From Escherichia coli (lineage in GTDB: Bacteria > Pseudomonadota > Gammaproteobacteria > Enterobacterales > Enterobacteriaceae): DNA of 64,000 nt. The position numbers and the translations under genes are program-made. A model generated the notes under the pieces. That model searched no databases and had not been told where the DNA came from. It was given only the letters and a program-made list of their open reading frames with translations. The stretch is from assembly GCF_030013205.1 (NCBI RefSeq), contig NZ_CP122648.1; one strand, written 5' to 3'. Shown piece by piece: positions 4,105 to 4,710 of the stretch (its first letter is position 1; each line of letters begins with the position of its first letter).

Positions 4105-4383
4105 TTACCTCCAGATGCGTTGCTGGAATGTGCGGGACGGACGCGGTGGGCGTTCGGAGTAAGGAAGCCTGACGGAGATTATCCAGTGACGGTAGTCGAG
4201 GCTAAGGGCTTTTTTAACCTCGCATCCGCGCCTGCGGTAACACTGAATCAGCCATTCAGCCTGTTCTTCAGTACATGGGGGATGCTGGTACCAATCAGAT
4301 TTAAATGCGTGAGAGCGCCGCCCGTGCCTGCTGGCAAAGACGGCTGAATTATCAGAATTGTGTAGTCTGGAATTTTGCGCCAT
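4105..4383 (-). CDS. hypothetical nin-region protein (92 aa)
   Basis: ORF only; position between DUF968 and hok; Cys-containing. Confidence 0.45.
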   Translation of the reverse strand: MAQNSRLHNSDNSAVFASRHGRRSHAFKSDWYQHPPCTEEQAEWLIQCYRRRGCEVKKALSLDYRHWIISVRLPYSERPPRPSRTFQQRIWR

Positions 4384-4449
4384 CGGCTTTCTCCGGTGGC
4401 ACAGTGTTACTCAACAGGGGTTCAGCCCTGCGCTGAATTGTAGATGAAT

Positions 4450-4710
4450 TCACTCATCTTCAAAAGCAGAAAAACCAGCCTTAATCCCAGCTTCTTTCAG
4501 AGACGGCAACGATGTGACAAATTCATTTGCACGCAAAATAAAACCATCCGTCACAAGCCCATCCACAAAATGAATTAACGCAGCTCCACTCTTCCTTTGT
4601 TGAGACTGTAAACATTTAATACGGCAGTGGCTGACAATAGCGCCATTCTCAACGCGCACAGTATAGAGGCCATCTTCACTAAAAATTTCACGTAATTCTT
4701 CGATTTTCAT
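4450..4710 (-). CDS. hypothetical protein (86 aa)
   Basis: ORF only; no family recognised. Confidence 0.45.
   Translation of the reverse strand: MKIEELREIFSEDGLYTVRVENGAIVSHCRIKCLQSQQRKSGAALIHFVDGLVTDGFILRANEFVTSLPSLKEAGIKAGFSAFEDE

Follow-up and report, generated by a model that had tools for sequence, protein, structure and literature searches.

Within the 64,000-nucleotide stretch of the Escherichia coli contig NZ_CP122648.1 analyzed here (the window), two small open reading frames (ORFs) lie on the minus strand between a DUF968 gene and hok, at 4105..4383 (92 residues, here termed orfA) and 4450..4710 (86 residues), just as an initial annotation had described them. That annotation could assign neither ORF to a family and considered a small toxin-antitoxin (TA) or regulatory pair possible. 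We found that the 86-residue gene is, by its sequence, an ortholog of rem, an antirepressor gene of K-12, and that orfA belongs to a catalogued family of small proteins, PHROG 1212. The reading that we favor, at a probability of roughly 70%, is that these are two independent delayed-early (nin-region) genes, encoding a Rem antirepressor of DicA and a PHROG 1212 protein, which do not form a TA pair and are transcribed leftwards to DUF968-rusA-Q.

The window holds a Stx2e-converting, Qin/PPompW-like lambdoid prophage of porcine E. coli, and a 1.2-kb stretch of it was 100% identical to Stx2e-encoding porcine E. coli chromosomes, for example NZ_CP062203. In the identical genome the prophage carries dicC, dicA, dicB, exo, xis, and int, adjoins ompW, and has stx2e downstream of Q; with int, xis, and the stx2e late region present in that genome, the prophage looks complete. 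The minus-strand genes and features run in the order hok, the hok terminator, the 86-residue ORF, a 66-nucleotide (nt) spacer, orfA, DUF968, rusA, and Q. The features concerned are:

4450..4710, minus strand: rem ortholog (86 residues), from the ORF listing and homology to K-12 Rem.
4105..4383, minus strand: orfA (92 residues), from the ORF listing and PHROG 1212.
3048..4103, minus strand: DUF968 gene (YdfU-like; PF06147, E = 5e-64; HNHc_6, E = 1.6e-7), directly downstream of orfA.
2670-3047, minus strand: rusA, from gene order.
2300-2680, minus strand: Q, from gene order.
4868..4892, minus strand: intrinsic terminator at the 3′ end of the hok mRNA, between hok and rem, from a terminator scan and invariant in a three-way alignment.
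4961..5116/5155, minus strand: hok (PF01848, E = 2.7e-23).
5188-6261, plus strand: IS481-family transposase, on the strand opposite to the hok-Q genes.
10203..10610, plus strand: dicA, 132 of 135 residues identical to K-12 DicA, outside the two-gene interval.

Both ORFs are real genes and not chance ORFs, because the ratio of nonsynonymous to synonymous substitution rates (dN/dS) was low, the other frames were closed in the case of orfA, and Shine-Dalgarno (SD) sequences were present. Specifically, closely related rem alleles were uninformative, and comparison with the K-12, mEp460, and Rac alleles gave dN/dS values of 0.115, 0.091, and 0.245, respectively, indicating purifying selection; the SD sequence AAGGA precedes the ATG at 4710. 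For orfA, 28 distinct alleles, drawn from the 80 related loci (IMG/VR loci carrying orfA) and K-12, gave an overall dN/dS of 0.175, with 0.52 in codons 1-26, 0.09 in codons 27-66, and 0.07 in codons 67-92. Stop codons interrupted four of the five other frames in all of these alleles and the fifth in 27 of the 28, and the SD sequence GGAG lies 7 nt before the ATG at 4383. The Prokaryotic Genome Annotation Pipeline (PGAP) labels both ORFs as hypothetical proteins in the identical genomes (orfA, WP_032240363.1; rem, WP_000975567.1).

The 86-residue protein aligned with K-12 Rem (b1561) over its full length, 62 of the 86 positions being identical (72%; BLASTP E = 5e-41), and it also matched phrog_340 (E = 1.3e-22). 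At the DNA level the gene region aligned with the hokD-rem-ydfU segment of Qin, and homologs bear the rem label in the PPompW/Stx2a, mEp460_ev081, PhiR42_1, and Rac phage records. One homolog, 99% identical, has a precomputed match to Pfam PF27490.1, and a Pfam scan of the window protein was without a match, the scanned copy presumably lacking PF27490. As in Qin, the gene is situated downstream of the hok terminator and upstream of the nuclease/Q block (here DUF968-Q) of a DicA-type lambdoid prophage. The DicA/DicC/DicB module is likewise near identical, with DicA being 98% identical to its K-12 counterpart, and dicC and dicB, the latter downstream of dicA, are annotated in the identical genome. 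Differences from Qin Rem comprise a four-residue insertion (QSQQ), 20 substitutions, and a CTG at the first of the two K-12 ATG codons; moreover, Qin is cryptic, whereas the window prophage looks complete. The window protein is acidic (isoelectric point, pI, 5.35), and this rem allele was present in 881 of 5426 complete E. coli genomes. The PGAP gene model of rem (264 nt, WP_000975567.1) begins one codon before the ATG, at the CTG (4711-4713). Because K-12 Rem begins MMNIEEL, with an ATG at the place of this CTG, PGAP has probably placed the start one codon too far upstream in this lineage.

The two ORFs had also been said to sit where Qin carries rem and relBE. The place is indeed that of rem, the 86-residue gene being rem itself, but relBE is found on the other side of hokD in Qin, upstream of it and not between hok and DUF968. 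The likeness to relBE is one of general neighborhood only (next to hokD in Qin), and neither window ORF resembles RelB or RelE. At the Qin relBE position, the window prophage has an IS481-family element and a SIR2-family gene, and no relBE.

The orfA product matched phrog_1212 (E = 6e-36), with residues 27-92 aligning to profile positions 1-66, and is basic (pI 10.35; family median 9.6). Residues 27-92 comprise the conserved core and C-terminal tail (PRPSRTFQQRIWR), while residues 1-26 constitute a lineage-specific extension predicted to be disordered. An alignment of 36 members sharing 25-90% identity with the window sequence yielded the family pattern WF.H...T..EA..L...Y...G......LS.D...W.VS..LP.....PR.SR.YQQRxW[R/G]-COOH. 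The window protein has the core motif of this alignment (WF.H...T..EA..L...Y), the LP, and the C-terminal QQRxW[R/G], the last of which was invariant in position across very different gene contexts. AlphaFold2, supplied with a diverse alignment, predicted a beta-alpha-beta-beta core with a predicted local distance difference test score (pLDDT) >90, followed by a less ordered basic tail and preceded by disorder in the E. coli-specific N-terminus. Structure prediction, a check proposed in the initial annotation and run for orfA, thus produced a confident core model, and the sole Foldseek match in BFVD was N15 Orf QD1, which belongs to the family. A Pfam scan of the 36 members gave scattered chance matches only, and a profile search of PDB sequences gave nothing below E = 0.2.

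A hidden Markov model (HMM) search of 1.84 billion representative proteins recovered 73 orfA relatives, most of which have 66 residues and correspond to the core. A profile word-search identified 324 clusters. Both searches brought up only hypothetical proteins of Enterobacterales, to which no Pfam domain was attached. Additionally, tblastn located family members in 61 phage records. The phages include Gifsy-1, Gifsy-2, mEp237, N15 (where the gene is unannotated), and PY54, alongside phages of Klebsiella, Cronobacter, Edwardsiella, Hafnia, Erwinia, and Pantoea, and the named members, N15 Orf QD1, Gifsy-2 STM1021.1n, PY54 ORF47, and mEp237_051, are all hypothetical. The family was confined to Enterobacterales prophages and was without a Pfam entry, and orfA-like DNA was present in 3518 of 5426 complete E. 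coli genomes (~65%), in up to seven copies per genome. These named members share with the window protein the region of residues 27-92, with its core and C-terminal motif, and a location in the nin or early region. Unlike them, the E. coli members have the 26-residue disordered N-terminal extension and a fixed position directly upstream of DUF968, whereas other members have 66 residues and other downstream genes. Two relatives had unusual architectures, namely P0273 (248 residues), in which a replication-protein-O-like N-terminus is fused to the orfA core, and P0219 (96 residues), in which the first half of the core is duplicated internally; they could be genuine fusions or the product of assembly errors or frameshifts.

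Hence, both genes could be assigned to families after all. The homology search suggested by the initial annotation gave the 86-residue gene a published function, that of K-12 Rem, and the 92-residue gene a family with no known function, so that a nin-region protein of defined function was matched by rem only. Neither the two ORFs nor the 36 orfA-family members had a Pfam match in a test for Nin families (NinB/Orf, NinG/Rap, NinH, NinX, and others), and Pfam, NCBIfam, and PADLOC scans of both ORFs returned nothing relevant.

The two genes occurred independently of each other, and a TA or other obligate pair is therefore not supported. Intact rem was found in 17 of the 80 orfA loci, with a few more having fragments only, and the commonest arrangement had the hok terminator ~170 nt upstream of orfA and no rem. 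Conversely, Rac has the order hok-rem-DUF1367-ybcO-Q, without orfA. The proteins are unrelated, with no profile similarity between them in hhalign, and neither matched a TA or defense family in Pfam, NCBIfam, PHROGs, or PADLOC. What had been proposed as a TA or regulatory pair is thus upheld to the extent that one gene, rem, encodes a regulator, while the pairing fails on distribution. In three IMG/VR loci (L009-L011, ~3912-4264), a rem shortened to residues 1-48 shares sequence with the beginning of orfA, the match to orfA starting at residue 5; this arrangement suggests a deletion that fused or removed the rem 3′ end and the orfA leader.

In K-12, Rem was shown in 2023 to be an antirepressor of DicA (Ragunathan et al. 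2023, PMC10448788), having been found by chained PSI-BLAST starting from the Gifsy/Fels antirepressors. Ectopic Rem raised dicBp-lacZ expression 165-fold, the filamentation that it causes depended on Qin and dicB/dicF, and a rem deletion was viable (PMC10448788). A role of window Rem as DicA antirepressor is well founded because of its orthology with K-12 Rem, from which the activity is taken, and the near-identical DicA in the same prophage. Small and acidic, Rem would act as an antirepressor of the DicA repressor of the prophage, relieve repression of the dicB-side early operon, and push the prophage towards the induced state. Since the prophage looks complete, and not cryptic as Qin is, Rem may trigger true induction, and the Rem/DicA switch could be a route to induction and toxin production that is independent of the SOS response in this complete-looking Stx2e prophage. 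By analogy, Rem may work like the LexA-controlled Gifsy/Fels antirepressors (Salmonella GfoA and FsoA), which are also small prophage proteins inactivating a non-cleavable repressor; unlike them, window rem has no LexA-box-like sequence upstream. We do not claim membership of that family, the homology link being that of the chained PSI-BLAST in PMC10448788. Neither BLASTP nor hhalign detected similarity between Rem and two small Gifsy-1 nin-region ORFs (STM2623.1n and STM2621.1n), with gfoA not identified for certain in that record.

Upstream of rem, a promoter scan called one putative site:

4792..4819, minus strand: sigma-70-like promoter (TTGAGG, 16-nt spacer, TAGAAT), putative.

This was the only promoter-like site called in 4000-5300, and the number of sites found was not above chance; the -10 element TAGAAT is kept in K-12 and Stx2a_14040. 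No LexA operator (CTGT-N8-ACAG, with one mismatch allowed) was present in 4711-4870 upstream of rem, and neither rem nor orfA had a DicA-operator-like sequence upstream. Between dicC and dicA, a perfect palindrome of 18 bp (TGTTAGCCATGGCTAACA, 10135-10152) is probably a DicA/DicC operator. Immediately upstream of rem, the hok 3′ end and terminator (4871-4952, minus strand) gave a sub-threshold Rfam match to isrK, an Hfq-binding small RNA, for which membership was rejected (30.5 bits against a gathering score of 50). The match may be coincidence or a distant parallel to Gifsy-1, where IsrK controls translation of a different antirepressor.

On its downstream side, orfA was always followed by DUF968 in the 80 related loci, as far as their sequence reached, and the two genes meet at the junction UGGAGGUAACGUG:

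4101..4113, minus strand: orfA/DUF968 junction, UGG AGG UAA C GUG, (nearly) identical in all 80 loci.

The orfA stop codon (4107-4105) and the DUF968 GTG start (4103-4101) are separated by 1 nt, and the DUF968 SD sequence GGAGG (4112-4108) is located inside the last two orfA codons, which in sequence is a translational-coupling layout. The GTG start is supported because selection acts on codons 2-24 of DUF968 (dN/dS 0.29) and because M25, the alternative start, is replaced by L in one variant. The DUF968 family joins an Orf-like N-terminal region to an HNH C-terminus (PMC4118853). Among the distant, 66-residue orfA homologs, the neighboring genes were:

1-9 nt downstream, in metagenome contigs L085 and L086: DUF968.
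1-9 nt downstream, in L091-L093: RusA, then DUF968.
1-9 nt downstream, in phage mEp237: YbcO.
1-9 nt downstream, in Gifsy-1 and Gifsy-2: NinG.
1-9 nt downstream, in phage N15: an RNase_T exonuclease fused to Lar.
Directly upstream, in PY54-like phages: RdgC.
Downstream, in L094: NinX.
Downstream, in L095: a PerC-like gene.
Downstream, in PY54-like phages: an unknown 175-residue gene.

The neighbors were mostly, and not always, nuclease genes, and the link between the orfA family and the recombination/nuclease block is therefore strong, though not absolute. With low confidence, we infer that the orfA protein would be a small basic accessory of the phage recombination/nuclease module that binds nucleic acid or docks a partner.

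The orfA transcript also has potential cis-acting features:

4442-4437, minus strand: -10-like hexamer TACAAT, ~55 nt upstream of the orfA ATG, putative.
4436-4411, minus strand: leader hairpin 1, core GCAGGG-CUGAAC-CCCUGU, directly after TACAAT.
4376..4403, minus strand: leader hairpin 2, enclosing the orfA SD sequence (4394-4391) and start codon (4383-4381), from the minimum free energy (MFE) fold.
4101..4210, minus strand: C-rich, G-poor stretch of the orfA mRNA (~40% C, 19% G; composition scan), a candidate Rho utilization region upstream of DUF968.

The promoter scan did not call the TACAAT site. Whether or not rem is present, loci have a hexamer (TACAAT, TATAAT, or TATACT) and a hairpin with CUGAAC in the loop at an unchanged distance from the orfA ATG, the stem sequences differing. 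The 68-nt orfA leader had an MFE of -25.3 kcal/mol (z = -3.3), and one of 200 shuffles was as stable. Both hairpins are kept in K-12, with two double-sided and three single-sided pairing-preserving changes. Relative to the window, hairpin 1 changes from A-U to G-C, G.U to G-C, and G-C to G.U, all keeping pairing, while hairpin 2 folds alike in the K-12 allele, where a U-A pair has become C-G and a U.G pair has become U-A. In K-12, ydfU is listed with those genes that have the strongest Rho-dependent terminators ahead of them (PMC9160355), and it is up 1.4-2.8 (fold-change values as tabulated) in rho and nusG mutants and with bicyclomycin, while rem is not (PMC9160355 supplement). Together, the leader hairpin, the C-rich 3′ end, and the K-12 ydfU data suggest that poor orfA translation may let Rho silence DUF968-rusA-Q in the lysogen; the structured leader and C-rich 3′ end would make orfA translation a gate for Rho-dependent polarity on these genes.

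Several points weigh against our reading of two independent nin-region genes, or against parts of it. Of 86 aligned positions, 24 are not shared between window Rem and K-12 Rem, the four-residue insertion included, and rem is without a LexA box upstream. The covariation evidence in the orfA leader is thin because it comes from two haplotypes only, and in loci lacking rem the start codon lies outside the second hairpin. The Rho data are from K-12 and not from the window strain, and apply to the latter by analogy. With NinX, a PerC-like gene, and the unknown 175-residue gene as downstream neighbors, the nuclease association is not universal, and it could be mere conserved synteny of the nin region.

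Of the alternatives for orfA, the one that survives best, and which we still consider unlikely, makes its product a host-directed early protein that would inhibit a host nuclease, a restriction or defense system, or a recombination protein, with the tail as a docking peptide and nuclease adjacency reflecting only synteny. The small size of the protein, its early-region location, and its restriction to temperate phages of a single bacterial order would fit such a role, as would the positional invariance of the C-terminal QQRxW[R/G] across gene contexts, the occurrence of neighbors that are not nucleases, and the N15 arrangement, in which the following gene encodes an exonuclease joined to a Lar restriction-alleviation domain. 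However, no similarity to known anti-defense or inhibitor proteins was found, and a role inside the phage module is the better fit to the close coupling with DUF968 seen at every E. coli locus.

It is also possible, though quite improbable in our judgment, that the 92-residue ORF is mainly a cis-acting leader or coupling ORF, the translation of which, and not its product, would control DUF968-rusA-Q through coupling and suppressed Rho termination, by analogy with orf45-anrP in Gifsy-1. The stop/start junction with the SD sequence within the last two codons, the hairpin over the orfA SD and AUG, the C-rich 3′ end, and the K-12 Rho-dependent termination zone between rem and ydfU are all consistent with this, and codons 67-92 showed less synonymous divergence than codons 27-66 (pS 0.20 versus 0.41), hinting at constraint at the RNA level. 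There is also precedent in orf45-anrP (PMC4825925): in the isrK-orf45-anrP system, too, the stop codon of a small ORF abuts the next start, RNA structure occludes the ribosome-binding site of the ORF, and the setting is one of prophage regulation. In contrast to orfA, the amino acid sequence of which is strongly constrained (core dN/dS 0.07-0.09), the orf45 peptide was reported to vary and not to be conserved (PMC4825925), and AnrP is an unrelated, larger antirepressor. Moreover, the 66-residue domain is predicted to fold confidently and is kept at 33-48% identity in phages in which the downstream gene is different or not a nuclease gene. These observations suggest that a cis role would add to a protein function rather than replace it.

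A broader version of the nuclease-module role is likewise doubtful in our estimation. Under it, the PHROG 1212 protein would be an unrecognized common partner of nin-region nucleases (DUF968, RusA, YbcO, and NinG), docking by its C-terminal tail, while its gene would also serve as a Rho attenuator gated by translation, deciding on the expression of the nuclease genes and of the late activator Q. If true, orfA would be a prophage-state silencing checkpoint for late genes, here including stx2e.

Finally, that the orfA product (as basic toxin) and Rem (as acidic antitoxin) form a type II TA or other obligate pair is highly implausible: the two small genes are neighbors on one strand, their products are of opposite charge (pI 10.35 versus 5.35), the locus adjoins hok, Qin has relBE nearby, and two phage records label the 92-residue gene "toxin to Rem" and one labels Rem "Antitoxin Rem" (PV340562.1, L106 133-384), yet the low co-occurrence (intact rem in those 17 of 80 loci), the presence of Rem without the 92-residue gene in Rac, the lack of any rem in one of the "toxin to Rem" records (ON470619.1, L098 2501-2779), the 66-nt spacer with its own -10-like element, the lack of a TA or defense model match for either protein, the K-12 rem deletion strain, which was constructed and grows while retaining an intact orfA ortholog (PMC10448788), and the explanation of the Rem overexpression phenotype by dicBF (PMC10448788) all stand against it. 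No paper behind "toxin to Rem" or "antitoxin Rem" emerged from a literature search, and both labels are unsupported by the evidence gathered here.

The two loci are thus ordinary prophage genes, one encoding a known, published antirepressor and the other a member of a catalogued but uncharacterized nin-region family of small proteins. This leaves little to discover, and it corrects the view of the two genes as unassignable or as a TA pair. It also exposes a gap in the K-12 reference. Curated MG1655 (NC_000913.3) has no feature at 1644306-1644584 (minus strand; L002 4307-4585), in the 346-bp gap between ydfU and rem, where an intact, selected ortholog of orfA with 92 codons is encoded, 82% identical to the window version. 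PGAP-annotated K-12 copies call this ortholog a hypothetical protein, and mEp460_ev081 also leaves orfA unannotated. The K-12 reference accordingly misses an intact 92-residue gene inside a zone of reported strong Rho-dependent termination.

Beyond the two genes, the IS481-family element, in the interval 5117-6390, splits the hok coding sequence from an Rfam sok/hok-leader match (RF01794, 6220-6387, minus strand, 109 bits), and hok appears to be cut off by this element from its own promoter, mok leader, and Sok. Just upstream of the hok start, at the element junction, is a LexA-box-like perfect palindrome of the form CTGT-N8-ACAG (CTGTGTAAGTTCACAG, 5129-5144); the total number of such matches across the window equals the chance expectation. 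The SIR2-family gene of the nin region (343 residues, 6590-7621, minus strand), which fills roughly the place of relBE/ydfV/flxA in Qin, had weak PADLOC matches to Aga_SIR2, SIR2, and PDC-S21 (E ~4e-6), and may be a prophage-borne defense gene.

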